Shown here: piece by piece, positions 10,166 through 24,895 of the stretch
How positions within the stretch are numbered: the first letter of the stretch is position 1
Layout of the letters: each line of letters opens with the position of its first letter
DNA from: Coriobacteriales bacterium
Lineage (GTDB): Bacteria; Actinomycetota; Coriobacteriia; Coriobacteriales; UBA8131
DNA: 40,631 bases
Assembly (NCBI GenBank): GCA_031263105.1
Contig: JAISGJ010000142.1
Location: 1-40,631, forward strand
Direction of reading: 5' to 3'
The notes under the pieces: generated by a model
Databases searched by the model: none
What the model saw: the letters and a program-made list of their open reading frames with translations, nothing else
What the model was told of the DNA's origin: nothing
Program-made: the position numbers and the translations under genes

Positions 10166-10178
10166 GCCCGGGATTGTA
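10163..10178 (-). promoter_or_regulatory. Putative leaderless late promoter (-10 TACAAT, 7 nt before the HNH ATG)
   Basis: Reverse strand GG-TACAAT-CCCGGGC-ATG; no Shine-Dalgarno between the -10 and the ATG. Confidence 0.5.
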
Positions 10179-10187
10179 CCGGGGACG

Positions 10188-10592: not shown

Positions 10593-10603
10593 GGCCGCGC
10601 CCC

Positions 10604-10834: not shown

Positions 10835-10913
10835 CCCTCTCACCGCCTTTCCTCGATGCCTCGGATGATAGCGTATCCCCGCCCTTGGGTAAACCCCTCC
10901 GCCCGTCGCACCG

Positions 10914-12486: not shown

Positions 12487-12487
12487 G

Positions 12488-12994
12488 TCACTCTCCCGTC
12501 TCGTCGTCGGTCGCGTCGTCCGGAAGCCCCAGGTCGCCCGCCCTGTGCGACTGGCGCGCGTAGGGCAGCAGCGCCCCGCGCAGCCCGTCGAAGCGCGGGT
12601 CGTCGCACTCGAGCGCCCAGACGTGCGCCGAGAGCTGCGCCGCGAACCCGAACGACACCTTGGCGCCCCTGGAGCCGCACCACAGCGGCCAGGACGAGTA
12701 GTCGAGGTCGGCCCGGCTCAGGTCGGCTTCGCTCAGGTCGGCTTCGCGCAGGTCGGCCCCGCTCAGGTCGGCTTCGCGCAGGACGGCGCGGCTCAGGTCG
12801 GCTTCGCGCAGGTCGGCCCCGCTCAGGTCGGCCCGGCGCAGGACGGCCCGGCGCAGGTCGGCCCGGCGCAGGTCGGCTTCGCGCAGGTCGGCGCGGCTCA
12901 GGTCGGCGCGCTCGCCCTCCTCGCCGCCGGTCCCGAGCCACAGCGCGTGGGCGGCGAGCGCGCCGCGCAGGGCGCCGGGGGTGTGCCCGGTCAT
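12488..12994 (-). CDS. Pentapeptide repeat protein
   Basis: About 14 A(D/V)LXX repeats between HALWL...GERADL and DYSSWPLWCGS; 15-bp tandem repeats at ~12705-12910. Confidence 0.9.
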   Translation of the reverse strand: MTGHTPGALRGALAAHALWLGTGGEEGERADLSRADLREADLRRADLRRAVLRRADLSGADLREADLSRAVLREADLSGADLREADLSEADLSRADLDYSSWPLWCGSRGAKVSFGFAAQLSAHVWALECDDPRFDGLRGALLPYARQSHRAGDLGLPDDATDDETGE

Positions 12995-13128
12995 GTCGTC
13001 AACCTCGTTTCCTGCCGCGCCCTCATCGCCGTCTCCTCTCCTGATGGGCAAAAACCCGTAATTACACCTTTAAGGAACGCGACGCCGCCTGCCTGCGGGA
13101 ACGCGCCGGGCGTTTCCGCGCCCCTCAT
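12991..13128 (-). CDS. Short linker ORF (45 aa)
   Basis: MRGAETPGAF...ETRLTT*; ATGA overlaps at both ends. Confidence 0.35.
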   Translation of the reverse strand: MRGAETPGAFPQAGGVAFLKGVITGFCPSGEETAMRARQETRLTT

Positions 13129-13727
13129 GGCCCCTCCCCGCCCCTCGCGCCGCCCTTCCGCGCCGCATCGGCCCGCCGCCCGGCCGCCGCCGCCGCGACC
13201 GCCAGGGCCGCGCACGCCCTGCCCGCCTCGCCCGCCCCGTGCAGGCCGAGCTTGGCCATGGCCGCGTGCTCGGCCCCGGTCGTCAGCATGAGGTTGCCCA
13301 GCGCGACGTTGGACCTGTCGCCGTCCTTGAACACGACGTTGCAGCCCTCCGGGACGGGGCCGTTGGCCTCCTCCCACACGAGGCGGTGCGCCTGGCGCCA
13401 GCCGAGGCGCGACAGCCCCGGCCCCTCGGAGGCCGCGACCTTGCGCCACAGGTAGCCGTCCCGCCGCGCCTCGGAGCCGAGCGGGAGGCTGTTGTGCGGG
13501 ACGTTCCCGGCCCTGAAGCGCCCCCGGTTCGCCGGGCTCCCCGGTGGCGCGCCCCTGACGCCGGACAGGACGCGCCAGCGGGCGGCGAAGTCCTTGACCT
13601 GCGCCGGCGTGATCGGCCTCCCGAACCTCTCCTCGAAGGCGGCGCAGACCTCGGCCCTCCAGCGCCCGGGGATCGCCCCGCGCAGGAAGGCGCGCTCCTC
13701 CTCCGTCCACCTGCGGGCGCGGCTCAC
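13125..13727 (-). CDS. HNH endonuclease (HNH_3 type)
   Basis: WTEEERAFL...GRFRAGNVPHN...WRQAHRLVWEEANGPVPEG...FKDGDRSNVALGNL. Confidence 0.88.
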   Translation of the reverse strand: MSRARRWTEEERAFLRGAIPGRWRAEVCAAFEERFGRPITPAQVKDFAARWRVLSGVRGAPPGSPANRGRFRAGNVPHNSLPLGSEARRDGYLWRKVAASEGPGLSRLGWRQAHRLVWEEANGPVPEGCNVVFKDGDRSNVALGNLMLTTGAEHAAMAKLGLHGAGEAGRACAALAVAAAAAGRRADAARKGGARGGEGP

Positions 13728-13966
13728 CTGCCGCCCCCGTCCAGCATCGGCGGCAGGGCGAGGTCGGCCCCCAGCGCCTCGTCCTTGAGCCTCGTCGCCG
13801 CAAGGGCGAGGTTGCCGTTGGCGATCACCTGCGACGCGACCCCCGTCACCGCCCTGGCGCGGCGTATCTCGGCGTCGAGCTCCTCGCCCTCCAGCGACTC
13901 GTCGTTGATCCTCTCCAGCGCCTCGAACAGGTGGTTGTTGAGGTCGCCCAGCGTGTTCCTCGTCAT
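13724..13966 (-). CDS. Conserved small phage protein
   Basis: MTRNTLGDLNNHLFEALERINDE...EIRRARAV...QVIANGNLAL; commonly found upstream of HNH_3 genes. Confidence 0.8.
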   Translation of the reverse strand: MTRNTLGDLNNHLFEALERINDESLEGEELDAEIRRARAVTGVASQVIANGNLALAATRLKDEALGADLALPPMLDGGGR

Positions 13967-14178
13967 CTCCCGTCCTTCCTTTCGCACGTTCCCCGCCCTC
14001 GCCCCGCGAGGGGCCTCATCATATCGGCGGTCGTGTTGCGAAACACAGAGCCGCACAGGAGCGTCCAGCCGCCCGGCACGGCCCTCGTCACCACGCCCGC
14101 CTCCCAGCGCCCCCGAGGGCGGCGCTGCACCTCCACGGCGTCGCCCGGCGCGTAGGCCGGCGCACGTCCCATGCCCAT
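13963..14178 (-). CDS. Small hypothetical protein (possible SH3/Tudor-like beta fold)
   Basis: YAPGDAVEV...GRWEAGVVTR; coupled at both ends. Confidence 0.5.
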   Translation of the reverse strand: MGMGRAPAYAPGDAVEVQRRPRGRWEAGVVTRAVPGGWTLLCGSVFRNTTADMMRPLAGRGRGTCERKDGR

Positions 14179-14900
14179 CACCCGGCCTTGCCGCGCAGGC
14201 GGGCGATGAGCGTGCCGAGGCCCTGCGGGGCGCCCGCGCGCGCGCCGTCGTCCGGTGCGCCGTCGCAGAGGACGGCGCTGTCCTGTGCTGTGCCGGGCGC
14301 GGCCCGTGGAGAACCCGCCCCGCACTGTCCCGAGAAAGAAAGACTCATAGGTGAGTCTTTCTCTTCCTTCTTTCCTTCTTTGGCATGAGCACTCACTGAG
14401 GACTCACTGAGCGCCCCCCGGGCGCCGGGGTTTTCCACAGGCGGCGGGGACGCCTTCCCGCCGTCGGCCATTATGCCGTCCGAAGGATGCTCACTGAGTG
14501 CTCCGTGAGTGCCCGGTGAGTCCTCACGGAGCCTGTCCGCGAGCCTCCTGAACCCGCCGGGCAGCCTCTTCCCCGGCGTGCCGCTCCTCTTGCCCGAGGG
14601 GCGGTTGACCTTCTGGTAGTTCAGGAACTTCGGGATGACCCCGAGGACGCCGTCCGGGGAGTCGTGCGCGACGATGCAGCCGACGGCCTCCAGCTCGGCG
14701 AGGTGCGCGGCGACGTCGGCGGCCGTCACGTCGTCGCCGTCGAAGTACAGCGCGCGGCGCATCCTCCCCGGCTGCGCCTTGAACACGCCCACGTCGTCGG
14801 ACATCTGCCACAGCCCGACGAACGTCAGCCTTGCGGCGACCGAGACGCGCCCCAGGCTCTCGGACTCCCAGAACTCCTCGCTGACCACCCGCTTCCTCAC
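14178..14900 (-). CDS. Phage replication initiator protein
   Basis: GTG start; RKRVVSEEFWESESLGRVSVAARLTFVGLWQMSDDVG...IPKFLNYQKVNRPS; iterons in the 3' half. Confidence 0.75.
   Translation of the reverse strand: MRKRVVSEEFWESESLGRVSVAARLTFVGLWQMSDDVGVFKAQPGRMRRALYFDGDDVTAADVAAHLAELEAVGCIVAHDSPDGVLGVIPKFLNYQKVNRPSGKRSGTPGKRLPGGFRRLADRLREDSPGTHGALSEHPSDGIMADGGKASPPPVENPGARGALSESSVSAHAKEGKKEEKDSPMSLSFSGQCGAGSPRAAPGTAQDSAVLCDGAPDDGARAGAPQGLGTLIARLRGKAG
14337..14531. other. Putative phage replication origin (iterons, DnaA box, inverted repeat)
   Basis: CTCACTGAG-like 9-mers at 14392, 14403, 14490, 14501, 14512 and 14523 (11-bp phasing); TTTTCCACA at 14431-14439; 11-bp inverted repeat 14337-14362. 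Confidence 0.7.
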
Positions 14901-15916
14901 GCCTGCCCCCAACCCAGCCGGGACACGGCCTCGGCCTTGCTCCGCTCGTCGGGGTGCAGGTATATGTTGGCGGTCGTGGACACGTTCGAGTGCCCGAGTA
15001 TGTCCGCGATCGTCTTTATGTCGACGCCCTCCTCCAGAAGCAGGGTCCCGCAGGTGTGCCTGAGGCCGTGGAAGCTCAGCTCCGGGTGCCCGCAGGCGGC
15101 GATGAACCGCTTGAACCACACGCCGTAGCCGCGCTTGCAGGGGACGTCGGCGCGCGTCCTGCCCCCGGGTATCAGCCAGCCCTCCGGCGCGAGCCTCTCC
15201 AGCAGCGCGGCGTGCTCGGGCGGCAGCGGCACGGAGCGCCGCGAGGCCCTGCTCTTGGTCGGCCCCGCGTCGGTCACCCAGCCCGTTCCCCCCTTGCCCC
15301 TGTAGGTGCGCACCCCGCGCTCGACGCGGACCGTGCCCCCCTTGAAGTCGAAGTCGGCCCTGCGCACGCCGCAGACCTCGCCGATGCGCAGCCCCGCGAG
15401 CCCCAGCAGGCAGCCCAGGGCGTAGCGGCGGGCGCTCTGCGCGTGGGCGGCGCAGACGGGCCCCTCGGAGCCGTCGAAGGGCGCCTCCGGGTGCTCCGCC
15501 GTGCGGACGGCGGCGGCGAGGACGGCCTCGGCGCCCTCGCGGTCGAGGCACTTGGGGACGCGGGGCGCGTCGTGGTCGCGGCAGCGGGGCATCTTGAAGC
15601 GGTACACGGCGGGGGCCGTGTAGCCGACCGAGGCCCCGTAGCGGTGGATGCTCGCCATCACGAAGGCCGTGCGCCGAAGCGTCGACGTGGCGTAGCCCAC
15701 GGGCTCCCCCCTCCTGCGCTTGCGGTGGCGCTGCTCGGCGACCGCGTATATCCCGCGCTGCAGCGCGGCGTGGCCGACGTCGGCGACGTCCAGCCTCCCC
15801 ATCGCGGGGACGATGCGGCTCCGGACGTCGGCGCGGTACTGGTCGTAGGTGGTCGGGGACACGCTCGGGGCGGCGTGCCCGTCGAGCCACTCGTGGGCGA
15901 GCTCGGCGAAGGTCAT
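14897..15916 (-). CDS. Tyrosine recombinase/integrase family protein inside the early operon
   Basis: SAM-like N-domain (TFAELAHEWL...SPTTYDQY); GLRIGE, TKS, FHGLRHT, LGHSNVSTTANIY, giving the full R-K-H-R-H-Y set. Confidence 0.92.
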   Translation of the reverse strand: MTFAELAHEWLDGHAAPSVSPTTYDQYRADVRSRIVPAMGRLDVADVGHAALQRGIYAVAEQRHRKRRRGEPVGYATSTLRRTAFVMASIHRYGASVGYTAPAVYRFKMPRCRDHDAPRVPKCLDREGAEAVLAAAVRTAEHPEAPFDGSEGPVCAAHAQSARRYALGCLLGLAGLRIGEVCGVRRADFDFKGGTVRVERGVRTYRGKGGTGWVTDAGPTKSRASRRSVPLPPEHAALLERLAPEGWLIPGGRTRADVPCKRGYGVWFKRFIAACGHPELSFHGLRHTCGTLLLEEGVDIKTIADILGHSNVSTTANIYLHPDERSKAEAVSRLGWGQA

Positions 15917-16425
15917 TGCCAGTCCCCCCTCCCCAGCCACTGCCCGGCCCTCTGCGGCCAGTGCCTCGCGGTGAGGCACCCGGGCGGCACGGGGGGCAGG
16001 AGCAGCATGTCGACCGCCGAGCGGCGCACGTGGAGCTTGCGCCTGAGCGCGGGGTACAGCGCCCGGAGGTAGCGGGCCAGCGCGGGCCAGAGGTTGTGGT
16101 CGAGGAGGAACATGGCGGAGGACGCGGGGCTCCAGCCCATGCGCACCATGAGGGAGCGGACGTCGCCGCGCCAGATGCCGGGCACGGAGGGGTCGTCCAG
16201 CGCCCTGTGGAGCACGTCGGCCAGTATGCGGAAGCGGCCGGGGTCGGACACGATCCACCTGTGGGCGGCGTCCACGTAGATGCGGGCCTGCGCGGTGCCG
16301 GGCCCGGCGGCGAGGAGCTCGTCGATCGTCATCTGGCCGGGCGGCGGCCCCTGCGGGGGCGCCGCCGCCCTCGCGGCGCCGCCCGCCCTGTGCGCGTCCG
16401 GGCGGCGCGGGCCCCGCCGGCTCAT
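15913..16425 (-). CDS. Hypothetical phage protein
   Basis: Coupled ORF; DHNLWPALARYL...RRSAVD. Confidence 0.65.
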   Translation of the reverse strand: MSRRGPRRPDAHRAGGAARAAAPPQGPPPGQMTIDELLAAGPGTAQARIYVDAAHRWIVSDPGRFRILADVLHRALDDPSVPGIWRGDVRSLMVRMGWSPASSAMFLLDHNLWPALARYLRALYPALRRKLHVRRSAVDMLLLPPVPPGCLTARHWPQRAGQWLGRGDWQ

Positions 16426-16739
16426 GACGCGGCCCCCGGGCCGGGGACGCCCGCGACCCACTCGGGGACGGGCCGGCGGCACTCGCCGTCGCCGCAGGGC
16501 CCCGCGACGTAGACCGCGACGCCGTCCGGGCTCCCGGGCGCCGGCTCGACGACCGCGACGGAGGCGACGGGCGTGAGCATCGCGGTGCTGCGCGCCGCCC
16601 GCGCCGCCTCCCCGAGGTCGTCGTAGCCCCCCTCGAGGGCATGGGCGCGCCGCCGGGGCGCGCCGTCCTCGCCCTCCTCGTCGCGCACGACCCATATGCG
16701 CCAGCGCGGCGACCGCGCCGCGCCCTGCCTGTCATCCAT
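16422..16739 (-). CDS. Hypothetical phage protein
   Basis: AAGGAG RBS; ATGA overlap downstream. Confidence 0.6.
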   Translation of the reverse strand: MDDRQGAARSPRWRIWVVRDEEGEDGAPRRRAHALEGGYDDLGEAARAARSTAMLTPVASVAVVEPAPGSPDGVAVYVAGPCGDGECRRPVPEWVAGVPGPGAAS

Positions 16740-16769
16740 CCGGGACTCCTTCCTCTCCGTTTTCGCGCG

Positions 16770-16997
16770 TCACGCCGCCGGGCCGTGCGGCGCCGGGGCC
16801 GGGGCCGCACGGCCCGCCCCTTCCCGCACGGCTGCGACGGGCGGGGCGGACGTGTCCGTCGCCGCCGCTGCAGGGGCCTGGGGCGAGGGGCGGCTCCCGC
16901 AGGCCCCTGCAGCGACGAGGACGGAGGCCGTGAGCAGCGCCAGCGCCCACGCGAGGGCGCGCTCCCGGCGCGAGAGGGGCACGGGGACGCCGCTCAC
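16770..16997 (-). CDS. Small membrane protein or lipoprotein
   Basis: GTG coupled start; RRERALAWALALLTASVLVAAGAC, a lipobox-like ending. Confidence 0.45.
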   Translation of the reverse strand: MSGVPVPLSRRERALAWALALLTASVLVAAGACGSRPSPQAPAAAATDTSAPPVAAVREGAGRAAPAPAPHGPAA

Positions 16998-17200
16998 GCC
17001 CGCCGCCCCTCGCGCCGCGCGCCCCGCAGGGCCCTCGCGCGGTCGCGGGCGGCGTGGCGCGTGGCCCGCCTCCACCACTCGCGCTCGTGCGCCGCGCAGC
17101 AGAACACCGTGCGCCTGTCGGCCCCGTCCGTGACGGCGACCGCCCTCCCGCACTCGCGGCAGCCGAACGAGCGCAGGGGCACGGGCGCCGCGTCAGCCAT
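16994..17200 (-). CDS. Small Zn-finger protein
   Basis: FGCRECG...DRRTVFCCAAHEREWWR. Confidence 0.7.
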   Translation of the reverse strand: MADAAPVPLRSFGCRECGRAVAVTDGADRRTVFCCAAHEREWWRRATRHAARDRARALRGARREGRRA

Positions 17201-17738
17201 GGCTGCGCTCCCTCGTCGGCATGAACGCGAACACGCCCTGCAGGTCGCCCGGGCCCGGCAGCACCCTGACTATGGCCGTCGCCCCCGCGCCGAACGAGAG
17301 CGGCGGCGCGCCCCAGGCCGCCAGCCGGGCGGGCGCCCTCCCGGTGACCAGCTCCGCCAGCACCGCGTAGGACCGGGGGTCGAACGCCACGGACGGGAGC
17401 GCGCCCGCCTCCCTCGCGCACAGGTCGGCGACGAGCGCGTCGACGCTCGCGGCGAGGCCGCCTTCGGGCGGGCGATGCGGGAGCGCCAGGAGCGCGCCCT
17501 CCGTGAGGATCCTCTCCTCCATGGGCGTGCTCCCGAGCCTCGCGCAGGCGAGCCACCTCTCCAGATCGCGGCGCCCGACGTCCCTGTCGGCGACGCCGTC
17601 CCCGTCCATCTCGACGACCGCCAGCTTGTACCCGTCAGTGGCCATCAGGCGCCCGCCCCCCACCATCAGGCGCCCGAGCCTCTCGCCCGTGCCGACGACC
17701 TTGAGCAGCGCGGCGACCTGCCGCTTGCTGAGGATCAC
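17193..17738 (-). CDS. Protein resembling part of a DNA sliding (beta) clamp
   Basis: GTG start; LMATDGYKLAVV and C-terminal FAFMPTR echo DnaN motifs; only 181 aa. Confidence 0.5.
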   Translation of the reverse strand: MILSKRQVAALLKVVGTGERLGRLMVGGGRLMATDGYKLAVVEMDGDGVADRDVGRRDLERWLACARLGSTPMEERILTEGALLALPHRPPEGGLAASVDALVADLCAREAGALPSVAFDPRSYAVLAELVTGRAPARLAAWGAPPLSFGAGATAIVRVLPGPGDLQGVFAFMPTRERSHG

Positions 17739-17929
17739 GGCACCCGCCCCCCGTCCCTCCCGGCCCGCCAGGCCTCGTACTCGGCCCGGCCCTCCTCGGT
17801 GCGCAGCGCGTCCGCGATCTGGCGCGCCATCCTGTCCGTCCACCACGCGGGCGGGCGCCATGTCCCCGGGCCCGCCGTGACCCCGGGCAGCGCCAGAGCG
17901 CCCTCCGTCGCCTCGCGTGTCGCCCTCAT
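17735..17929 (-). CDS. Small hypothetical phage protein
   Basis: MRATRE...MARQIADALRTEEGRAEYEAWR; starts within the junction repeat. Confidence 0.6.
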   Translation of the reverse strand: MRATREATEGALALPGVTAGPGTWRPPAWWTDRMARQIADALRTEEGRAEYEAWRAGRDGGRVP

Positions 17930-18168
17930 GCGGCACCGCCTTCCTCGGACGGTCCCGCCAGCGCGGCGGCGGCCAGCGCCGCCCCCGGTGTCCTGCGAAG
18001 TCTCATGGCACCACCTGCTTTCTGGTATGCTCTTCCGCAACAGGAAGGCCGCGCCGCCCATATGAGCAGCTGCACGAGCAGCGCGGCGAGGAACCCGGCG
18101 GCACCGCCCCACACGGTCGCATGGACCACGGTCCTCACGTCGATGTCCCTGCGCGGCCCCGCTGACAT
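17926..18168 (-). CDS. Small membrane protein
   Basis: VVHATVWGGAAGFLAALLVQLLIW helix; ends GGAA* in the junction repeat. Confidence 0.55.
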   Translation of the reverse strand: MSAGPRRDIDVRTVVHATVWGGAAGFLAALLVQLLIWAARPSCCGRAYQKAGGAMRLRRTPGAALAAAALAGPSEEGGAA

Positions 18169-18270
18169 CTATCCCGCCGCCCTTGCTATCAGCTGCGCGA
18201 CCAGGTAGCCTGCGGTCGCGGCCAGGACGCCCATGGCGAAGTACCTGATGCGAATCCGGTCGTCCCTCAT
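18169..18270 (-). CDS. 33-aa single-TM peptide
   Basis: MRDDRIRIRYFAMGVLAATAGYLVAQLIARAAG*; starts in the junction repeat, next ATG follows immediately. Confidence 0.55.
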   Translation of the reverse strand: MRDDRIRIRYFAMGVLAATAGYLVAQLIARAAG

Positions 18271-18926
18271 GCGGCACCGCCCGTCCCCTCGCGCCGTATA
18301 ATGGGCCGTGAGGCATATCTGGCTCCGGACGAAAGGAGACGGGCGGCATGGAGAAGCTGACGCGTGAGCTCAGGGACTTCCTGTATGAAATATCGCCCCA
18401 CAGCGGCGAGCGCCACTATCTCAGGATCAGGTTCGGCGGGCTTCCCTGCGAGGACGTCTTCCAGCAGACGCAGATGGTCGTCGAGCTGAGGAGGAAGGGG
18501 ATGCTCCACATCTCCGAGCCCCTCGACTCCGTCGAGTTCGTCGCCGTCCCCCCTGAGCAGCCGCCAGCAGGCGGCATCGTGGTGGGTTACGCCGACGGCG
18601 GGACCCGGACCGTGAGCTTCCCCCCTGGGTTCACGCTCACCTCCGACGGGAGGAGCTACCGGAAGGAGGCTCGAAAGCAGGCCGCGCTCTGGGTCCTCGG
18701 CATCGTGCTCACGGCCGTCCTCAGCGGGTTCTTCGCGTGGGTGTTTGTGGCCGTAGTCCCGTGGTAGGTCCCTCACCAGTATGGGGCCGTCCCACCCATG
18801 GTTCTTGCCGACGAACGCCGCCGTCTCCCTTGCGCGCCCATGGCCGGAGTCCCGGAAGTCGTACCAGACGATGCTGCAGAGGGGTCCGTCGGCAAAATAC
18901 TGGGCGCGGTACCATCTGTCCCTCAT
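18267..18926 (-). CDS. Lytic-strand ORF (219 aa) fully overlapping the antisense gene 18348-18767
   Basis: Starts and stops in consecutive junction repeats; N-terminus MRDRWYRAQYF...WYDFR is paralogous to 19503-20156. Confidence 0.55.
   Translation of the reverse strand: MRDRWYRAQYFADGPLCSIVWYDFRDSGHGRARETAAFVGKNHGWDGPILVRDLPRDYGHKHPREEPAEDGREHDAEDPERGLLSSLLPVAPPVGGEREPRGEAHGPGPAVGVTHHDAACWRLLRGDGDELDGVEGLGDVEHPLPPQLDDHLRLLEDVLAGKPAEPDPEIVALAAVGRYFIQEVPELTRQLLHAARLLSSGARYASRPIIRREGTGGAA
18297..18347 (+). promoter_or_regulatory. -10 box (TATAAT) and RBS (GAAAGGAG) for the antisense gene
   Basis: TATAAT at 18297-18302; the paralogous CATAAT is at 19533-19538 with an identical RBS. Confidence 0.6.
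18348..18767 (+). CDS. Antisense accessory gene: soluble (possibly wHTH-like) domain plus C-terminal TM anchor, paralog 1
   Basis: Strong RBS and own -10; FTLTSDGRSYRKEARKQ followed by WVLGIVLTAVLSGFFAWVFVAVV. Confidence 0.8.
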   Translation: MEKLTRELRDFLYEISPHSGERHYLRIRFGGLPCEDVFQQTQMVVELRRKGMLHISEPLDSVEFVAVPPEQPPAGGIVVGYADGGTRTVSFPPGFTLTSDGRSYRKEARKQAALWVLGIVLTAVLSGFFAWVFVAVVPW

Positions 18927-19261
18927 GCGGCACCGCCTTTCTCGGAAGAGTCCCGGTCGGGCTCGTACTGGGCGCTCAGGGACCCGCCGACGCGCCATCC
19001 CAGGAGAAGGCCGCCACCTGCGGCGAGGACGTACAGGAGAGCCTCGCGCGCATAGTCTTCGAGCGGGGACAAGAAGCTCACGACGATAAAGCCGAGCCAT
19101 AAGCAGAAGGCCTGGGACCTCGCGTCCTTTGCGGAGAACTTCCCGGTAAGCTTAATCGCGAGCTTTTTCCGGAGAGACATGGCGGTCAAGGTGATCACCG
19201 TGAGGGCGGCCGCAAAGTAGGCCACCGAAAAGACTGCCTCGAACATGGTTGCCTCGCTCAT
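18923..19261 (-). CDS. Membrane protein (about 3 TM)
   Basis: MSEATMFEAVFSVAYFAAALTVI...AFCLWLGFIVVSFL...ALLYVLAAGGGLLLGW; lower GC; coupled at both ends. Confidence 0.6.
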   Translation of the reverse strand: MSEATMFEAVFSVAYFAAALTVITLTAMSLRKKLAIKLTGKFSAKDARSQAFCLWLGFIVVSFLSPLEDYAREALLYVLAAGGGLLLGWRVGGSLSAQYEPDRDSSEKGGAA

Positions 19262-19506
19262 GACGCGCCCCCGTACAGGATGTCCAAACGCTCGACATGA
19301 ATCCCGAGACAGAAGCCTGCGAAAAAGGCATAGAAGACCGCAACGGCAACATGGAACACGGCGAACCCAATCACCCCTGAACACATAAGGGCAACAGCAA
19401 GGAACGCAGAGGAGGCACATGCCAGCAAGCAGAGAACGACGGGGATGATGTCTGACCCACGGGACTCCCCGTACTTCCTGTAATACCTGTAGTCGAAGGC
19501 CCTCAT
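19258..19506 (-). CDS. Membrane protein (2 TM)
   Basis: MRAFDYRYYRKYG...IIPVVLCLLAC...VIGFAVFHVAVAVFYAFFAGFCLG. Confidence 0.6.
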   Translation of the reverse strand: MRAFDYRYYRKYGESRGSDIIPVVLCLLACASSAFLAVALMCSGVIGFAVFHVAVAVFYAFFAGFCLGIHVERLDILYGGAS

Positions 19507-20156
19507 GCGGTGCCGCCCGTCCCCTCGCGCCGCATAATGGGCTGTGGGGCATATCTGGCTCCGGACGAAAGGAGACGGGCGGCATGGAGAGGCTGAACGG
19601 GGAGCTCAGGAGGTTCCTGTACGGGATCGCGCCACACGCCGAGGAGGCCGGCTACCTTCCCGAGCGGTACAAGGGCCTGCCTTACGAGGACGCAAGCAAG
19701 GGACTCCAGATGTTCGATGCCCTTGAGAGGAAGGGCATGGTCCACGGCTCCGAGCAGACCAGGGCGACCAGATACGGGGCAGGCCCCTCTGCAGTCCGCA
19801 CCCGGTCCGGGCTCCTCGTCAGCTACGGCGGCGACACGACGCCCGAGCTCAGGTTCCCGGAGGTGTTCTGGGTCACCTACGACGGGGAGAACCATCGGAA
19901 AGAGTCTCGAAAGCAGGCCGCGTCTTGGCTTTTCGGCATCCTGCTCACAGCCGTGCTCGCAGGGCTCTTCGCGGCGGTATTCGCCGTAGTCATCCGGTAG
20001 CCTCCTCAGAGAGAACAGCCTCCCGTACCCGCCCCACTTCCCACAGTTCTCGGCGTACCGCCGCGCCTGCTCCATGTCGCCCCCACGGAAGTCGTACCAG
20101 AGCGTCTCACCGAAGTTGGGCGGGAAGTAGCCCGCCCTGTAGTAGCGCGGCCTCAT
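19503..20156 (-). CDS. Lytic-strand ORF (217 aa) fully overlapping the antisense gene 19584-20000
   Basis: ATGA-coupled to cro; MRPRYYRAGYF...LWYDFR; ends REGTGGTA* in the next repeat. Confidence 0.55.
   Translation of the reverse strand: MRPRYYRAGYFPPNFGETLWYDFRGGDMEQARRYAENCGKWGGYGRLFSLRRLPDDYGEYRREEPCEHGCEQDAEKPRRGLLSRLFPMVLPVVGDPEHLREPELGRRVAAVADEEPGPGADCRGACPVSGRPGLLGAVDHALPLKGIEHLESLACVLVRQALVPLGKVAGLLGVWRDPVQEPPELPVQPLHAARLLSSGARYAPQPIMRREGTGGTA
19584..20000 (+). CDS. Antisense accessory gene with C-terminal TM anchor, paralog 2
   Basis: Aligns without gaps to 18348-18767 (MExLxxELRxFLY, GLPxED, LxRKGM, RKExRKQAAxW, GIxLTAVL). Confidence 0.8.
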   Translation: MERLNGELRRFLYGIAPHAEEAGYLPERYKGLPYEDASKGLQMFDALERKGMVHGSEQTRATRYGAGPSAVRTRSGLLVSYGGDTTPELRFPEVFWVTYDGENHRKESRKQAASWLFGILLTAVLAGLFAAVFAVVIR

Positions 20157-20413
20157 GCGGCACCGCCTCCCGCGTGGCCGTTGCGGTCGTCGGCAAGGCA
20201 AGACTTGATGTTAATTAAACCAACATTCAAGCTCAAAAAAATATCATTAATCGAACAGCCGATAAAATTGCAGACTGCTTGAGCTTGGGACACGCTCATT
20301 GCTTCCGGAAACTTTTCGTACTGCGAGTAAGTCTGACGCGAAACGCCAAGGTGGTCAGCAACTGCGAGCATCTTAATGCCCCTGCTTTCTCGCATTTCTT
20401 TTAGTTTGCTCAT
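20153..20413 (-). CDS. cro: Cro-like XRE HTH regulator
   Basis: LKEMRESRGIKMLAVADHLGVSRQTYSQYE...IGCSINDIF; divergent from cI. Confidence 0.88.
   Translation of the reverse strand: MSKLKEMRESRGIKMLAVADHLGVSRQTYSQYEKFPEAMSVSQAQAVCNFIGCSINDIFLSLNVGLINIKSCLADDRNGHAGGGAA
20208..20226. promoter_or_regulatory. Distal operator-like site inside cro
   Basis: ATGTTAATTAAACCAACAT matches the intergenic 19-bp palindrome. Confidence 0.6.
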
Positions 20414-20435
20414 ACCACTCTCCCTTCTCCTTGTT

Positions 20436-20499
20436 ATGTTAATCAAATTAACATTGCTATGTCAAGCAAATTATCCTAAAATGTCAAAATATTTTACAG
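20436..20499. promoter_or_regulatory. Lysis-lysogeny switch: three 19-bp operators over divergent promoters
   Basis: ATGTTAATCAAATTAACAT (20436), ATGTCAAGCAAATTATCCT (20459), ATGTCAAAATATTTTACAG (20481). P-cI TTGCTA-17-TAAAAT; P-cro TTGACA-18-TAACAT on the minus strand. Confidence 0.75.
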
Positions 20500-20512
20500 G
20501 GCAGGAGTTCAT

Positions 20513-21142
20513 GTGTCTGTTTCGTCAAACATAAAGCGTTTACGACTTGCTGCCGACATGACGCAAGAGCAGTTGGCCGAAAGGCTCGGCGTCACACGCC
20601 CCACGGTCACCCAGTGGGAAACCGGATGGTCTCAACCTCGGATGGGGATGATTGAGCGGCTGTCCGAAGAATTTAGGGTGAAAGCATCGGAGCTTGTGGA
20701 TGCCCCTCTTCCACCCGGCGCCATCGTCCCCACGCCCGTCGAGACGGTGCCCGTCCCCGTCTACGGGCGCATAGCGGCCGGGGAGCCCTTGGAGATGTGC
20801 GAACTCGTCGAGGAGGTGGAGGCGCCCGCCACGAAGCGCGAGAGACACCCCTACGCGTACTTCCTCATCGTCTCGGGCGACAGCATGAACAACGAGATAC
20901 TGGACGGGCACCTCGCCCTCATAGACCCGAAGGCGGAGGTCAGGAACGGCGACACCGTGGCGGTCAACGTCAACGGCTACGACGCGACGCTGAAGGTCTG
21001 GCACAGGACGTCCAACAGCGTCATCCTGTCCCCCAACTCGACCAACCCGGAGCACAGGGACATCGTGATAGACGAGACGAGCCCCGACGCGCCCAACCTG
21101 CGCGTCCTCGGCAAGAAGGTGTGGGCGATGTACCCGGAGTGA
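20513..21142 (+). CDS. cI: CI-like repressor (XRE HTH plus S24 autopeptidase)
   Basis: MTQEQLAERLGVTRPTVTQWETG; cleavage site IAAG; GDSM serine; TLK lysine. Confidence 0.94.
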   Translation: MSVSSNIKRLRLAADMTQEQLAERLGVTRPTVTQWETGWSQPRMGMIERLSEEFRVKASELVDAPLPPGAIVPTPVETVPVPVYGRIAAGEPLEMCELVEEVEAPATKRERHPYAYFLIVSGDSMNNEILDGHLALIDPKAEVRNGDTVAVNVNGYDATLKVWHRTSNSVILSPNSTNPEHRDIVIDETSPDAPNLRVLGKKVWAMYPE

Positions 21143-21174
21143 GGGACAGACAAGGTAGAAGGGAGCGCCATAAC

Positions 21175-21936
21175 ATGAACGAGGGTACCGTGGGTGTCGA
21201 AACGGCCGAAGGTGACGCTGGACCGGAGCCGCCCCAAGATCCGGAGCAGAAAATCGTCGTCATAGACACTGAGACCACGGGGCTCTCAAAGGGCAAAGAC
21301 GAGGTGCTCCAAGTCGCCATCATCGATTCCGAAGGAGGCGTGCTGCTCCATGAGCTGATAAAGCCAGAAAAACGGAAGAGCTGGCCTAAAGCCGAAGAGA
21401 TACACGGAGTCTCACCGGCAATGGTGAAGGATGCGAAGCCGCTTGTCGACTACGCCGACAGGATTGTGGAGATAGTCAACGAAGCCGACATCGTGATCGG
21501 CTACAACGTGGAGTTCGACCTCGAAATGCTCTTTTCTGGCGGTGTTCCACTAGACCTGCCCAACATCAAAGCCTTCGACGTAATGAAGGAGTTCGCGGAG
21601 GTCTACGGTGACTTTGACGAGAGGCGATGCGACTACCGATACAAAACCCTGAAAGTCTGCGCAAACTACTACAAGTACAAGTTCGACGCACATGACGCCC
21701 TCGCAGACGCGAGGGCCACTCTTTATTGCTATGGGCAGATGGAGGACCGTCTGCGCAAAAAGAGAGAGCAAAGGGAACAGCAACAAATACGGGAGCGAGC
21801 AGATGCAGACGCGCTAATCGCAAAAACGAACGCGGAAAACCGAAGCAGTGGCATCGTTGCCATCATGGTCGCCGTCCTCGTACTCGCGTGTGCCATTTGG
21901 TCATGCGTGTCATGCAGCGCCGTGCTCGGCGGATAG
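21175..21936 (+). CDS. DEDDh 3'-5' exonuclease with coiled coil and C-terminal TM helix
   Basis: VIDTETTG, IGYNVEFD, AHDALADA motifs; then RKKREQREQQQIRE and GIVAIMVAVLVLACAIWSCV. Confidence 0.88.
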   Translation: MNEGTVGVETAEGDAGPEPPQDPEQKIVVIDTETTGLSKGKDEVLQVAIIDSEGGVLLHELIKPEKRKSWPKAEEIHGVSPAMVKDAKPLVDYADRIVEIVNEADIVIGYNVEFDLEMLFSGGVPLDLPNIKAFDVMKEFAEVYGDFDERRCDYRYKTLKVCANYYKYKFDAHDALADARATLYCYGQMEDRLRKKREQREQQQIRERADADALIAKTNAENRSSGIVAIMVAVLVLACAIWSCVSCSAVLGG

Positions 21937-22046
21937 ACGACAGTGGAGAAGGGGAAATCGGTGAAACGCTTGCCAATGCGCATGGCCGTGTACTATAGTG
22001 GGACACGTGATGAGGCTGCAGGGACATGTCGCTGCAATCCGCAAAG

Positions 22047-22077
22047 AGCCGCAGTCAGCACGCTGACGCGGCTTTTT
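22047..22077 (+). terminator. Intrinsic terminator-like hairpin upstream of the integrase
   Basis: AGCCGCAGTCAGC-AC-GCTGACGCGGCT followed by TTTT. Confidence 0.6.
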
Positions 22078-22094
22078 ACGTTCTGGAGGGGTTG

Positions 22095-23597
22095 ATGAAA
22101 AAGCCGTTCAAGGCCGTGATATACGCACGCTACTCCTCGCACGCCCAGCGCGAGGAGTCCATCGAGGACCAGCTGAGGGTCTGCCGCGCGTATGCGGAGC
22201 GCGAGGGCTACGCGGTCGTGCGCGAGTACTGCGACGCGGCCCTCACGGGGCGCAGGGACGACCGCCCCGCCTACCGGCGCATGCTGGCCGACAGCGCCGA
22301 GGGGCTGTGCGGGCAGGCGGCCATCGTCTACAGGACCGACCGCATCGCCCGCAACCGCATGGACGCGCTCGTGTGCCGCGCCACGCTCAGGAAGGGCGGC
22401 GTCAGGCTCCTGAGCGCCACCGAGGCCATACCAGACACCCCCGAGGGCATCCTCATGGAGAGCTTCCTGGACGGCTACGCGGAGTACTACTCGGCGGTGC
22501 TGGCGCAGAGCGTAAGGCGCGGCATGGAGGGCAACGCGCTCAAGTGCATGGCAAACGGGGTCACGCTCTTCGGCTACGACATATCGTCCGGCCGCTACGT
22601 GCCCGACCCCGTGACGGCCCCCCACGCGCGGATGGTGTTCGCCGAGGCTGCGGCGGGCGCGCGCCTTGTGGACATATGCGCGCGCCTCAACGCGCAGGGG
22701 GTCACGACCATGCGCGGCAGGCCGTGGGCGCGCTCGTCGCTGCACCGGATGCTGGACAACGAGAAGTACGCCGGCGTGTACAGGTTCGACGGCGTGCGCA
22801 TAGAGGGCGGGATGCCCGCACTCGTGGACAGAAGGACGTTCGAGGAGGCGAGAAGGATGGCAGGGACGAGGAAGCGGGCCGTGCGCAGCGGGGCCCCGGC
22901 GTACATCCTGACCGGCAGGGCGTACTGCGGCCACTGCGGGGCGACCATGGGCGGCAAGGGCGCCAACGCCAAGGGCAGGCACTACGGCTACTACGCCTGC
23001 AGCTGCGGCAGGGGCTGCGAGAAGCGCCTGGTGCCGCAAGAGGAGGCCGAGGGCGTCGTGGCGGCCCTCACGCGGGCGCTCGTCTGCGACCCGCAGGCCG
23101 TGGACGCGATAGCGGAGGCCGTCGTCTCGTACCGCGACGCGCACCGGGGCGAGGGCGTCGCCGAGGAGCTCAGGGGCAGGCTCGCCGACGCGGGGCGCAG
23201 AGCGGCGAACCTCCTGAAGGCGCTGGAGTCCAACTACTCGGACGCCGTCGCGGAGCGCGTCGCGGCCCTGGGGGAGGAGCAGGACGCGCTCAGGCTCAGG
23301 CTGGCCGAGGAGGAGTCCGTGCTGCCGTCCGTGACGCGCGAGCACGTGGTGTGGTGGCTCTCGCGGATGGAGGGCAAAGACGACGGCGAGCTCGTCGATG
23401 CCCTGGTTTCCAAGGTCACCATGACGAACCATGACAAGCACAGCAATATGCTTGAGATTGCATATAACTTCAAGGAAGACGGGGAATACTACATAATAAG
23501 GGTGGAAGATACGGTTTCGACTTTGGAACGCTTGGTGGGCCGTCGGGGACTCGAACCCCGGACCTTGGGATTAAGAGTCCCCTGCTCTACCAACTAA
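22095..23597 (+). CDS. Large serine integrase
   Basis: IYARYSS catalytic Ser, DRIARN, recombinase domain (NEKYAG), Zn ribbon CGHCG...YYACSC..C, coiled coil; GGAGG RBS before ATG 22095. Confidence 0.95.
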   Translation: MKKPFKAVIYARYSSHAQREESIEDQLRVCRAYAEREGYAVVREYCDAALTGRRDDRPAYRRMLADSAEGLCGQAAIVYRTDRIARNRMDALVCRATLRKGGVRLLSATEAIPDTPEGILMESFLDGYAEYYSAVLAQSVRRGMEGNALKCMANGVTLFGYDISSGRYVPDPVTAPHARMVFAEAAAGARLVDICARLNAQGVTTMRGRPWARSSLHRMLDNEKYAGVYRFDGVRIEGGMPALVDRRTFEEARRMAGTRKRAVRSGAPAYILTGRAYCGHCGATMGGKGANAKGRHYGYYACSCGRGCEKRLVPQEEAEGVVAALTRALVCDPQAVDAIAEAVVSYRDAHRGEGVAEELRGRLADAGRRAANLLKALESNYSDAVAERVAALGEEQDALRLRLAEEESVLPSVTREHVVWWLSRMEGKDDGELVDALVSKVTMTNHDKHSNMLEIAYNFKEDGEYYIIRVEDTVSTLERLVGRRGLEPRTLGLRVPCSTN

Positions 23598-23608
23598 GCT
23601 AACGGCCC
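23533..23608 (-). tRNA. tRNA-Lys (anticodon CTT)
   Basis: GGGCCGTTAGCTTAGTTGGTAGAGCAGGGGACTCTTAATCCCAAGGTCCGGGGTTCGAGTCCCCGACGGCCCACCA; 76 nt with encoded CCA. Confidence 0.97.
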
Positions 23609-23784
23609 AAGAACACACAATTGTCAATCCTGCACGCAGTGGCGCAGGTCCCCTGCTCTTCCAGGGGGCGGCCGCAGGCGCCCGCCCGACCTCGGTACAA
23701 ACGCCACAACGTGGCGTTTGCCTGACCCTCGGTCCCAACTAAGCTAACGGCCCAAGAACACATAATTGTCAATCCTGCACGCAG
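23590..23784. repeat. 50-bp direct repeat of the tRNA 5' end plus leader, with an interrupted tRNA fragment
   Basis: 23590-23639 vs 23735-23784, one mismatch. Confidence 0.9.
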
Positions 23785-23818
23785 GGGACGCACCTTGTGC
23801 GTCGATGCGCGAATTGGA

Positions 23819-23847
23819 AGTATAGCGGTTTAGCGTCGCGGCGGCAA
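23819..23847 (-). promoter_or_regulatory. Sigma70-type promoter for the tRNA
   Basis: TTGCCG-17 bp-TATACT on the minus strand. Confidence 0.65.
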
Positions 23848-23896
23848 GGTTTGTTACAATGCTCAAGGCAATACTCAAGGGAATCTCACGGGAGCG

Positions 23897-24163
23897 GTTA
23901 CTGCTCACGCCCCGCTGTCATCCCGAGCCTGCCGAGGGATCTTCAGCCGCGCAAGCGGTCGACTGCGGGCGGATGCGCTTCGACCTGCTGGCGGCTGCTT
24001 CGCGTTCCGTGGGCCTGTCGGCCCGTCCTCGCTGAGAACAGTCCGCCGGACTGTTCTCCGGGCGCTCGAACCCAAGGATTCCTCGGCTGCGGGGCTTCGC
24101 CCCGGAGTTTACCCTGAGCGCAGCCGAAGGGCTCGGAATAACAGTGAGGGTACGGACAGCAAC
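23897..24163. repeat. MITE/REP-like palindromic element, copy 1 (with nested hairpins)
   Basis: TGTCATCCCGAG...GAGGGATC...GGATTCCTCGG...CTCGGAATAACAG; homologous to the elements at 26816 and 33863. Confidence 0.75.
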
Positions 24164-24223
24164 GGAGCGCACCCAAGGAAGCGCTTTCAACACGCGCGAG
24201 GACGTTACAGAGAAGGAGTGTTC

Positions 24224-24895
24224 ATGGTAGACGAGGTACAGGCTTCTTTTGATGCCCGGGCGACCGCCTATGACGCCAACAGGCGCAGTCTTATCCCCCA
24301 TTTCGACGAGTTCTACCGTATCGGCGTGGAGGCGCTTGCCTACTGCGACCAGTCGCCGCGCGTGCTGGATCTCGGGGGCGGAACGGGGCTCTCGACGTCC
24401 TTCCTCCTCGGGCGCTACCCTGATGCGCGTGTGACCCTGCTCGACTTCTCGAACGAGATGCTCGCCGTTGCCCGCGAGCGCTTCAAGGACAACCCCAACA
24501 TAGACTTCAGAGTGAGAGACTATCGCAGCTTCCCCTTCGACGAGCGCTTCGACCTCGTCATCTCAGGGCTCTCGATCCACCACCTCACGGCGGACGAGAA
24601 GCGAGAGCTTGCCGTGAGGGTCTTCGGGCTGCTCGAACCCAACGGGGAGTTCTTCAATGCCGACCTGGTCAGCTGCGAGGACGAGCGACTGGAACAGGAG
24701 ATGCACCGGCAGCTGCAGGGCTTCCTGCGCCAAGGGCTGTCCGAGGACGAGGTGCAGCGCTTCGTCAGCAGCCAGCGCCTCGACAGGCCGGCACCGCTCG
24801 AGAGCCAGCTCTCCCATCTCCGCTCAGCAGGCTTCAAGGTCGTCGAGTGCCTGTACCGCCACCTGATATACGGCGTGTTCTACGCGCAGAAGTGA
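24224..24895 (+). CDS. Class I SAM-dependent methyltransferase (CmoA-like)
   Basis: RVLDLGGGTG, LLDFSNEML, FDLVISGLSIHHL; AAGGAG RBS. Confidence 0.9.
   Translation: MVDEVQASFDARATAYDANRRSLIPHFDEFYRIGVEALAYCDQSPRVLDLGGGTGLSTSFLLGRYPDARVTLLDFSNEMLAVARERFKDNPNIDFRVRDYRSFPFDERFDLVISGLSIHHLTADEKRELAVRVFGLLEPNGEFFNADLVSCEDERLEQEMHRQLQGFLRQGLSEDEVQRFVSSQRLDRPAPLESQLSHLRSAGFKVVECLYRHLIYGVFYAQK

Follow-up and report, generated by a model that had tools for sequence, protein, structure and literature searches.

Setting of the array

Downstream of the cro-like gene of a prophage, a 17-base sequence recurs among small, overlapping genes. Does this repeat serve as a junction at which cassettes are added or exchanged without loss of coupling, is it a regulatory or recombinase site, or is it the idle relic of a duplication? 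A sequence-only reading had proposed a plug-in hotspot, possibly using a nearby tyrosine recombinase. We analysed the window of 40,631 nt (the whole stretch of DNA under study). The array lies on the cro side, in the early operon of a temperate phage that has integrated into the genome of a termite-gut member of the Coriobacteriales. The neighbouring genes needed below are:

20153..20413, minus strand, cro-like HTH gene (Pfam HTH_3, E 1.7e-9)
14897-15916, tyrosine recombinase gene, 2 kb from the array
22026-23597, serine recombinase gene, the integrase of the prophage

Four promoter-like sites were found, all in the cI-cro region. No sigma-70-like promoter or terminator pattern was found within the array or at any repeat copy.

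Ribosome site, stop and start within one repeat

The five minus-strand copies that had been described, with successive spacings of 341, 656, 580 and 650, were all recovered, four of them exact and one with 2 mismatches. The duplex energies given here were predicted against the 16S rRNA tail of a genome of the same order.

20151..20167, minus strand, R1, exact; cro stop and A1 start; duplex -14.1 kcal/mol
19501..19517, minus strand, R2, 2 mismatches; A1-frame stop and B1 start; duplex -11.8 kcal/mol
18921..18937, minus strand, R3, exact; C1 stop and A2 start; duplex -16.3 kcal/mol
18265..18281, minus strand, R4, exact; A2-frame stop and B2 start; duplex -12.6 kcal/mol
17924..17940, minus strand, R5, exact; C2 stop and D start; duplex -15.8 kcal/mol

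All copies share one orientation and lie within 17924-20167, in the early operon; no array-type copy was found in the structural genes or in the rest of the genome. In shuffled sequences, matches at up to 3 mismatches averaged 0.68, and five were reached in 1 of 100 shuffles. When the source genome (250 contigs, 86% complete) was scanned at up to 2 mismatches, just two unrelated sites were found outside the array, on other contigs. A backward control pattern had 8 matches in the same genome.

Within the 17-mer, 7 nt pair, with one mismatch between them, to the 16S rRNA tail; a spacer of constantly 4 nt comes next, then ATGA and two last bases. In ATGA the stop codon of one gene and the start codon of the following gene overlap, and the last two bases of the repeat belong to an AGG second codon. 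The upstream ORFs read the TGA as an in-frame stop in five cases out of five (tails ...GGAA or ...GGTA, then the stop), and the downstream ORFs, in frames backed by GC3 phase, all begin at the ATG of the repeat (ATG-AGG). This bears out the earlier statement that each copy ends one gene and starts the next. The predicted duplexes at the repeats (-11.8 to -16.3 kcal/mol) compare with -18.6 for cro and -13.3 for portal, and all are stronger than that at the non-R junction of C1 (-8.6). The remaining three junctions of the string also have overlapping or abutting stops and starts (ATGA, TAG-ATG and GTGA), and the eight-gene string appears to be kept coupled by the stop/RBS/start repeat.

Exact copies are 17/17 identical, versus 6-12/24 in the 24-nt flanks, the R2/R4 island excepted; the flanks of R1 and R3 reach 12/24 against a background of 6.6. 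The final ~45 nt of cro are GC-rich and similar to the tail of C1, and the break between low and high GC in the immunity module lies ~35-45 nt upstream of R1, not at R1. Folding of the five repeat contexts (z -2.1 to +0.9) gave no structure in common, and a hairpin at R2 and R4 only.

Homology between the two units switches at the repeat

The cassette genes are as follows:

19503..20156, minus strand, A1, lytic-strand ORF with GC3 phase; frame ends at the TGA in R2
19258..19506, minus strand, B1, small membrane protein of 82 aa, with hydrophobic windows and GC3 phase
18923..19261, minus strand, C1, small membrane protein of 112 aa; a non-R ATGA overlap couples it to B1
18267..18926, minus strand, A2, paralogue of A1, likewise reading through over P2
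18169..18270, minus strand, B2, single-helix membrane peptide of 33 aa
17926..18168, minus strand, C2, small membrane protein of 80 aa
17735..17929, minus strand, D, 64 aa, first gene past the array

C1 had a sub-threshold match to Phage_holin_2 (E 3.3e-4), and D and E overlap by GTGA, in surroundings that resemble a degenerate R. The similar beginning that had been noticed in four cassette-initial ORFs is real: A1, A2, B1 and B2 share an N-terminal motif. The A ORFs have 217 and 219 codons, with a coding signature (GC3) limited to about the first 60, and their N-terminal parts are 42% identical (E 1e-11). Their tails are antisense, in codon register, to P1 and P2 on the plus strand, and codon bias alone is expected to keep this frame open (P ~0.89 each).

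The whole region has a period in which C-type tail, R and A head alternate with A tail, R and B head, with R1 and R5 as outer copies, R3 as junction copy and R2 and R4 as inner copies. In local alignment, the A/P interiors of the two units are homologous (z ~100), while the B/C interiors have no nucleotide homology between units (z ~0). Homology is high up to R2/R4 and gone past them; it therefore switches at the repeat. The description of diverged interiors between near-identical boundaries therefore covers two unlike cases, A/P being clearly homologous and B/C not. The layout of R1/R5, R3 and R2/R4 is the product expected of unequal crossing-over between two flanking copies.

An old duplication in place, with fast drift of the small membrane genes, accounts for the B/C result equally well. 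One ancient tandem duplication of junction-A-P-junction-B-C would then have been followed by divergence, and the repeat would have been idle in the gain and loss of cassettes, its constancy being due solely to its merit for initiation. The periodicity agrees with this, as do the last 32 aa of C1 and C2 (41% identical), the N-terminal motif of B, and the lack of variant arrays among the matches listed. Contigs of three runs contained no repeat-to-repeat joint, which also fits, but these contigs break at a 38-bp identical stretch (18325-18341 and 19561-19577). We nevertheless consider such a relic unlikely, since tandem duplicates at 47% protein identity would be hard to retain in a size-limited phage genome, and relatives differ in module number (see below). 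Furthermore, a duplication ending exactly on pre-existing junction copies would itself imply recombination at those copies.

Antisense P genes and conserved islands

Each A frame runs across a gene on the opposite strand, the start of which forms part of a conserved island:

19584..20000, plus strand, P1, antisense gene with GC3 pattern; winged-helix-like N-terminal domain and C-terminal membrane helix
18348..18767, plus strand, P2, paralogue of P1 (47% identity)
19501..19596, unit 1 island: first P1 codons, P1 ribosome site, CATAAT -10-like box (19533-19538) and R2
18265..18360, unit 2 island: first P2 codons, ribosome site, TATAAT box (18297-18302) and R4

P1 and P2 are members of a real gene family (39 representatives) with a conserved -10-like box. 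The model of P1 had a pLDDT of 88, and its best fold matches were PadR/MarR-like and weak (E of at least 0.03). No terminator of P1 or P2 was recognisable by pattern search. From their sequence, the P genes would be self-promoted, repressor-oriented 'morons' for predicted membrane-anchored winged-helix-like proteins, with a presumed expression and function in the lysogen. Morons of temperate phages were reportedly described by Juhala et al. 2000; PMC3029335 uses the term. Like morons, P1 and P2 are additional genes that sit in an operon, each bring a -10-like box and point the same way as the repressor gene. They differ from morons by lying antisense inside a lytic-strand frame, by having no recognisable terminator and by being paired with a small convergent ORF.

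The two islands are identical at 90 of 96 positions. Because both R2 and R4 end such a 96-nt island, they are parts of a longer conserved element. In the lytic-strand RNA a 16-bp stem was predicted at the unit 1 island, and the hairpins of the two islands have 15-16 bp, with arms at 19511-19525 and 19570-19584 in unit 1 and at 18277-18289 and 18334-18346 in unit 2; the z-scores were modest (-2.1 and -0.8). The Shine-Dalgarno part of R2/R4 lies within this hairpin, and the pairing strand is the antisense of the P ribosome site. Since the hairpin would bury these Shine-Dalgarno sequences, B1 and B2 are probably translated only if ribosomes cross the P antisense region in the A frame.

Modules in relatives

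A second locus with at least two copies of the 17-mer was found in none of 34 family genomes. In IMG/VR, 37 loci with the 17-mer were all single-copy; metagenome contigs held at least 120 such loci, and the 80 among the matches listed were all single-copy. The relatives that could be compared (L055, L056 and the viral contig G791) are distant Coriobacteriales, no close phage relative having been found.

A homologous module occupies the same place in these relatives, after cro or after an antirepressor gene following cro, once in L055, once in L056 and twice in G791. L056 and G791 differ in module count though their flanks are nearly identical. In module 1 of G791 the P ORF is lost, with breakpoints at the ORF ends and not at the 25-27-nt inverted repeats; module 2 has a 168-aa gene unrelated to P (hhalign probability 5%). 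Cargo thus varies behind a common head and inverted repeat. B2 is kin to the small ORF facing P in relatives (47% identity over 32 aa with that of L056). The two diverged tandem modules that G791 has independently, and the differing module counts of L056 and G791, argue against an idle duplication relic. The idea of a hotspot was therefore upheld in part: the post-cro site is variable in distant relatives, but no other multi-copy 17-mer locus was present among the matches listed.

The modules of the relatives open with a junction of like design and other sequence, and their conserved edges are the junction head and 25-27-nt inverted repeats. This counts against our main reading, in which the exchanges occur at the 17-mer. 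The homology of L055 and L056 begins ~40 nt upstream of the start codon, not at the start codon. The inverted repeats adjoin both the P -10 box and the small-ORF ribosome site; between the alpha and beta types, the two arms co-vary.

The repeat could also be a regulatory site, its 10-bp quasi-palindromic core (4+2+4) being bound by a phage or host factor that would gate each cassette. The winged-helix domain of P is one candidate, although its fold matches are weak, and an RNA-acting factor, as proposed for start-associated sequences, is another; the 17-mer would then be a short counterpart of the inverted repeats of relatives, which abut the P -10 box and have co-varying arms. The spacer (CCGC) and the GG after ATGA, in the second codon, are conserved though not needed for rRNA pairing, which hints at some further constraint on the repeat. 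In addition, the changes in R2 (central TG to CA) are the exact reverse complement of the repeat centre, and 15 nt separate R2 and R4 from the -10-like boxes of P1 and P2 downstream of them. However, 4+4 bp would make a short operator palindrome, no promoter is near three of the five copies, and the 17-mer is missing, at up to 5 mismatches, from the cI-cro intergenic region, which has its own 19-bp palindromes. We hold this explanation to be distinctly unlikely. The same absence led us to reject a repressor site of the stoperator type; stoperators of cluster A mycobacteriophages are described as transcriptional in PMC3203893.

The suggestion that the tyrosine recombinase uses the repeat found no support: the repeat has no recombinase core-site architecture, and nothing links the two. 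It would imply an integron-like system in which this enzyme inserts, excises and shuffles cassettes at the repeats. The cassettes are indeed bounded by direct repeats near a tyrosine recombinase gene, and L055 and L056, which also encode a serine or tyrosine integrase, gave a partial tblastx match to it (~48% over 40 aa). Yet the repeat is without two inverted binding arms around a 6-8-bp spacer, and its double role as ribosome site and stop/start pair explains most of its conservation. The recombinase gene does not adjoin the array; it shares 4 nt (14897-14900) with the start of the replication-initiator gene. Integrons have an attC site that is an imperfect palindrome of 57-141 bp, an adjacent attI/integrase unit and promoterless single-gene cassettes. 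The array has neither an attC-like palindrome nor such an adjacent unit, and its cassettes hold an internal, promoter-bearing antisense gene. The inverted-repeat-bounded modules of relatives are equally oriented in four cases of four. No circles or deletions were seen in the contigs, which is weak evidence because of their break at the 38-bp stretch. Altogether, a site-specific system is highly improbable.

We regard as very unlikely a last possibility, that the post-cro region is a dedicated cassette platform in this group of Coriobacteriales temperate phages. Each module would comprise a lytic-strand small ORF and a convergent, self-promoted gene for a membrane-anchored protein, with edges formed by the 17-mer here and by the co-varying inverted repeats in relatives. 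A phage factor (the tyrosine recombinase or P) would recognise the repeats and move, invert or gate modules, and lytic read-through across the P antisense region would act as a lysogenic/lytic switch.

Proposed mechanism

The reading that we favour, with moderate confidence, is that the repeat is a portable translational-coupling junction that also offers short homology for unequal general recombination. Ribosomes ending one cassette would restart on the next, so that cassettes could sit in the operon without a promoter of their own. Ribosomes reading the full A frame would open the hairpin at R2/R4. The two units, each made of A/P and B-C, would result from unequal homologous recombination between junction copies, in sister genomes or, more likely, in two diverged related phages. 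The junction is proposed to have been kept identical because it works as an initiation site. From the architecture we infer that exchange took place at the 17-mer; the architecture and the relatives together suggest that recombination was general and homology-driven rather than site-specific.

Comparison with known systems

Among the closest known systems are those that Pope et al. 2011 (PMC3203893) describe from cluster K mycobacteriophages, the start-associated sequences (SAS) and extended SAS. As described there, these too are short asymmetric repeats, in many copies and one orientation, confined to non-structural genes of temperate actinobacterial phages. They take the position of the ribosome site, with a Shine-Dalgarno core and conserved bases unable to pair with rRNA; the upstream stop is sometimes inside the repeat, and the host genome contains few of them. 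Inverted repeats immediately precede about half of the SAS copies, which recalls the hairpin before R2/R4. The 13-bp consensus given in PMC3203893 differs in sequence, so the 17-mer would be an analogue of SAS, not a member. Unlike SAS as described, it includes the start and the overlapping stop, and it has five copies in 2.2 kb in a Coriobacteriales host.

Clark et al. 2001 is said to be the lambdoid source paper for boundary sequences. The concept of short conserved boundary sequences at phage mosaic junctions is cited in PMC3029335. There, as here, gene boundaries share a short conserved sequence that lies next to diverged or unrelated modules and would provide homology for general recombination, and the relatives compared here vary in how many modules they have and in the cargo between conserved edges. 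The 17-mer departs from that concept in that exchange is deduced from the architecture, and in that the edges in relatives are inverted repeats and a junction head. Arbiol et al. 2010 (PMC2839356) present the PeSL (promoter-early stem-loop) cassettes of T4-type phages, in which non-essential ORFan genes of a plastic region lie between recurring small regulatory elements; crossover at these elements is proposed to shuffle modules. Mini-circles, formed when adjacent repeats recombine, are a further mark of PeSL cassettes. PeSL elements are transcriptional (a strong sigma-70 promoter and a stem-loop terminator), whereas the 17-mer, with neither, would act on translation.

Meaning of the array

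The array adds a fresh example to the old notion of gene exchange between phages at short, conserved sequences on module boundaries. Clean natural cases of gene addition to a phage without breaking operon expression are few, and in this array a single boundary element serves as stop, ribosome site and start. The layout, a lysogen-oriented gene nested antisense in a lytic reading frame, is seldom described, and the sole visible purpose of the lytic A frame may be to ferry ribosomes to the next junction. The locus also defines a small unannotated family of predicted membrane-anchored winged-helix-like prophage proteins beside the immunity switch, and it gives the start-associated sequences of actinobacterial phages, which lack an explanation, a case that can be tested.

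The prophage and its junction repeat

The window contains a prophage with the following features.

22026-23597: serine integrase; the ORF end overlaps a tRNA-Lys gene
next after the integrase, ahead of the CI repressor: RNase T-like exonuclease
20513-21142, plus strand: S24-type CI repressor
20153-20413, minus strand: Cro-like HTH gene
early genes past the array: tyrosine recombinase, replication initiator, HNH endonuclease, methyltransferase
last in order: terminase, portal and capsid genes

The likely attachment site is the tRNA-Lys(CTT) gene (23533-23608), with which the serine integrase ORF overlaps at its 3' end. Read depth in sequencing run X1 was about 25 up to 23476 and more than 1300 beyond it (23476-24500), so this last stretch is common to many organisms in the sample. 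The early region also carries a gene for a pentapeptide-repeat protein (12488-13051; Pfam Pentapeptide, E 1.2e-26).

The minus-strand genes of the array run in the order cro, A1, B1, C1, A2, B2, C2, D, E. A scan of the window confirmed the five minus-strand copies of a 17-bp stop/start repeat (the 17-mer) reported by the sequence-only reading, as well as their spacings (341, 656, 580 and 650, from R5 to R1). Four copies are exact (R1 at 20151, R3 at 18921, R4 at 18265 and R5 at 17924), while R2, at 19501, has two mismatches. The shuffle expectation was 0.68 matches at three mismatches or fewer, and the next-best site in the window had at least four. The repeat forms five of the eight junctions of the gene string; the other three are overlapping or abutting stop/start pairs (ATGA, TAG-ATG and GTGA). 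Every gene starting at a repeat copy was supported by GC3 phase. The D/E junction (the GTGA overlap, 17735-17760) and the ribosome site of the portal gene (7643-7659) resemble a degenerate repeat. The 17-mer may be one form of a ribosome-site style favoured by the phage.

In the source genome (an assembly of 250 contigs, 86% complete), the 17-mer was confined to this locus; two unrelated sites with two mismatches elsewhere did not exceed the count for a backward control pattern. Among 33 other genomes of the same family we found one site with a single mismatch. The scan of IMG/VR gave 37 loci, every one single-copy and none related by tblastn. Metagenome contigs gave at least 120 loci, and the 80 listed were all single-copy and unrelated. 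The loci retrieved from these two collections did not encode proteins of the window, chance integrase matches aside. On unrelated contigs, the 17-mer fell on a stop/start junction in 34 of 105 distinct contexts, an uncontrolled count that we do not take as evidence. The only runs containing the stretch were termite-gut metagenomes of one study, and no RNA run was among them.

Antisense P genes and the A reading frames

Two plus-strand genes lie antisense to A1 and A2.

19584-20000, plus strand: P1, with the GC3 > GC1 > GC2 pattern of real genes
18348-18767, plus strand: P2, with the same pattern

GC3 phase indicated that the coding strand of most of the 217- and 219-codon A ORFs is plus, not minus. 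The coding signature of the A frame is limited to about 60 codons, over which A1 and A2 are 42% identical, and the long A tail is the codon-aligned antisense frame of P, with a chance of staying open of about 0.89 given the codon usage of the prophage. GC3 phase and this expected openness led us to reject the long A ORFs as ordinary proteins of 217-219 residues. The sequence-only reading had the repeat ending gene A; this holds for the reading frame, but the stop is largely a by-product, because the tail is an antisense frame so likely to remain open. No homologue of the A N-terminal domain was found, and none of the cassette proteins reached threshold in Pfam, PHROG or PADLOC.

P1 and P2 are 47% identical and are members of a small family, with 39 representatives of about the same length; the closest relatives are P0002-P0004, encoded on short JGI contigs. 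The AlphaFold model, built on 17 family members (pLDDT 88), consists of three helices plus a wing, a small region of beta structure and, at the C-terminus, a long helix. Its top PDB matches were PadR/MarR winged-helix regulators, though weak (E 0.03 or worse), and a structure search of the Atlas gave the same lead. As sole query, P1 found no homologue in the word-indexed protein database, no related locus in the locus search and one weak match only among 401 genomes of the order. The locus search with the P-family alignment found nothing in three collections, and that with E gave one weak partial match (E 5e-4 over 21 residues). With the P-family profile, we detected homologues in 2 of 272 sister-family genomes; the 33 other genomes of the source genome's own family had none.

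Ribosome site and predicted hairpin

Because the source assembly has no 16S gene, we used the 16S 3' tail of G218, a complete genome belonging to the same order. Over the 22 nt before each start, the predicted duplexes with this tail were -14.1, -11.8, -16.3, -12.6 and -15.8 kcal/mol for R1 to R5, respectively, compared with -18.6 for cro, -13.3 for the portal gene and -8.6 for the non-repeat junction before C1. Bases 1-7 of the repeat and the purines preceding them form a duplex with the rRNA tail that contains one mismatch, and are followed by a 4-nt spacer, ATGA and GG. This layout of ribosome site, start and stop therefore explains 11 of the 17 bases, and six are left over.

The ribosome site of P1 and P2 is related to that of the repeat and has the opposite orientation, which creates inverted repeats of 13-15 nt with 44 nt between the arms. 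In the lytic-strand RNA, a stem of 15-16 bp is predicted to hide the Shine-Dalgarno part of R2 and R4 (fold z -2.1 and -0.8). Translation through the A tail would melt this stem, and the ribosome would then halt at the TGA overlapping the start of B; such opening is our proposed reason why coupling matters here.

The TG -> CA change in R2 (19501-19517) turns the central bases of the 10-bp quasi-palindrome in the repeat into their exact reverse complement and makes R1 and R2 a perfect inverted pair of 10 nt. A hairpin-templated switch would produce it.

Sigma-70-like promoter patterns were found only between cI and cro, and no copy of the 17-mer carried a terminator pattern. The repeat was rejected as a promoter or terminator since neither pattern is present at its copies, and as the CI/Cro operator since the cI-cro control region has no copy of it but palindromes of its own. 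In that region, a 19-bp palindrome occurs in two copies, 228 bp apart and 85% alike. One (20436-20454) overlaps the promoter-like site of cro, and the other (20208-20226) falls where the low-GC part of cro ends, in its final codons, at the break between low and high GC. We regard both as likely CI/Cro operators, which could allow looping.

Modules in distant relatives

No close relative of the phage was found, the phage collection giving zero blastn matches. The two P-profile matches, L055 and L056, are distant Coriobacteriales relatives in which the P homologue is located near the start of the cro-side operon, in the orientation of the repressor gene. It follows a cro-like gene in L055, and is separated from it by an antirepressor-like gene and a further ORF in L056. 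Facing P in both is a convergent 35-aa single-helix ORF with an N-terminal match to the motif pointed out by the sequence-only reading, and the start junction of this ORF has the same design (purine-rich Shine-Dalgarno stretch, GC-rich spacer, ATGA). A scan with this junction retrieved G791, a viral contig of 32.6 kb (93% complete; locus L265), in which the small ORF and the next early gene are nearly identical to those of L056. The modules are bounded by inverted repeats.

L055, 9766-9790 / 10337-10361: 25 nt, 100% complementary, 546 nt between arms
L056, 2032-2058 / 2604-2630: 27 nt, 85% complementary, 545 nt between arms
L265 (G791), 8506-8532 / 8304-8330 and 7866-7890 / 7175-7199: modules 1 and 2

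In L055 and L056, the two arms adjoin, respectively, the small ORF's ribosome site and a TATGAT box ahead of P; homology between the two loci begins at the left arm and fades past the right one. In module 1 of G791 the P ORF is deleted, leaving 175 nt between the arms instead of 545. The deletion (L265 8304-8400 versus L056 2180-2600) is nearly precise, from near the start codon to the last few codons; the leader and -10 box are retained, as are both inverted repeats. Module 2 has a repeat of the L055 type (96% complementary, 666 nt between arms) around a 43-aa membrane ORF facing a 168-aa gene, which is not of the P family (hhalign probability 5%) and has no Pfam match. All four modules share one orientation. 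Thus, this site holds either one or two modules with varying cargo, and different cargo can lie between the same edge sequences.

The inverted repeats fall into two sequence types whose arms co-vary, and L055 and G791 have different cargo within repeats of one type. The module-flanking repeat had no further occurrence in G218, and the beta type was absent from the source genome. These repeats may serve for binding, for recombination or as an RNA stem. Together with the palindromic core of the 17-mer and the unexplained conservation of its spacer and second codon, their co-variation keeps alive the explanation that the repeat is a regulatory site.

History of the array

The array consists of two units of [A/P][B C]. 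Aligned with each other, these were 48-76% identical over A/P and 24-39% past R2/R4, and matched at 90 of 96 positions in an island (19501-19596 and 18265-18360) that spans the first P codons and a -10-like box up to R2/R4.

18297-18302: TATAAT, -10-like box of the unit 2 island
19533-19538: CATAAT, -10-like box of the unit 1 island

In local alignments against shuffles, the A/P interiors had z of about 100 and the B/C interiors about 0. At the protein level, B2 resembles the small ORF of the relatives, and C1 and C2 have only their last 32 residues in common. The 24-nt flanks of the copies retain periodic similarity (background 6.6, sd 2.2): upstream, 23/24 for R2-R4 and 12/24 for both R1-R3 and R3-R5; downstream, 12/24 for R3-R4. 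The GC-rich tail of cro resembles that of C1, so the periodic structure starts about 24-45 nt left of R1. The low-GC immunity module was thus joined at that point, not at the repeat.

The copies lie at both ends of the array, at its mid-array junction and once inside each unit, exactly as unequal crossing-over between two flanking copies gives; the partners could have been sister genomes or two diverged phages. Contigs of runs X1-X3 over 9000-24500 showed no repeat-to-repeat joint, but they break at a 38-bp identical stretch and are blind to deletions. Three contigs of X2, from a second sample of that study, hint in combination at related phages that are arranged differently. A low-depth one connects sequence up to 12737 with sequence from 19512, inside R2; one agrees with 18054-18148 except at 4 positions and then continues in the recombinase gene; and one of 151 nt has the same sequence as cro over 20205-20355.

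Comparison with known systems

The sequence-only reading had proposed a hotspot at which recombination at the repeat exchanges cassettes, possibly through the nearby tyrosine recombinase. Variation in module number and cargo at this site in distant relatives agrees with part of this proposal. A dedicated site-specific system is unlikely, because the repeat lacks a core-site architecture, the recombinase belongs to the replication module and contigs, the only material examined, contained no excision products. Tyrosine recombinase-like genes lie in the early/replication module in the window (14897-15916), L055 (16902-18281) and L056 (7865-9019), in prophages that also carry a separate integrase (serine in the window). 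The window gene shares 4 nt with the start of the replication-initiator gene and gave only a partial tblastx match with L055 and L056.

Among described elements, the start-associated sequences of cluster K mycobacteriophages come closest: asymmetric 13-bp repeats located 3-7 bp ahead of the start codons of non-structural genes, with a Shine-Dalgarno core, further conserved bases and, in about half of the cases, inverted repeats upstream (PMC3203893). PeSL cassettes (PMC2839356) fit more loosely, since their promoter and terminator are absent from the repeat. A role of the repeat as a crossover point fits the concept of short conserved boundary sequences (PMC3029335). Our preferred interpretation of the repeat is a portable translational-coupling junction.
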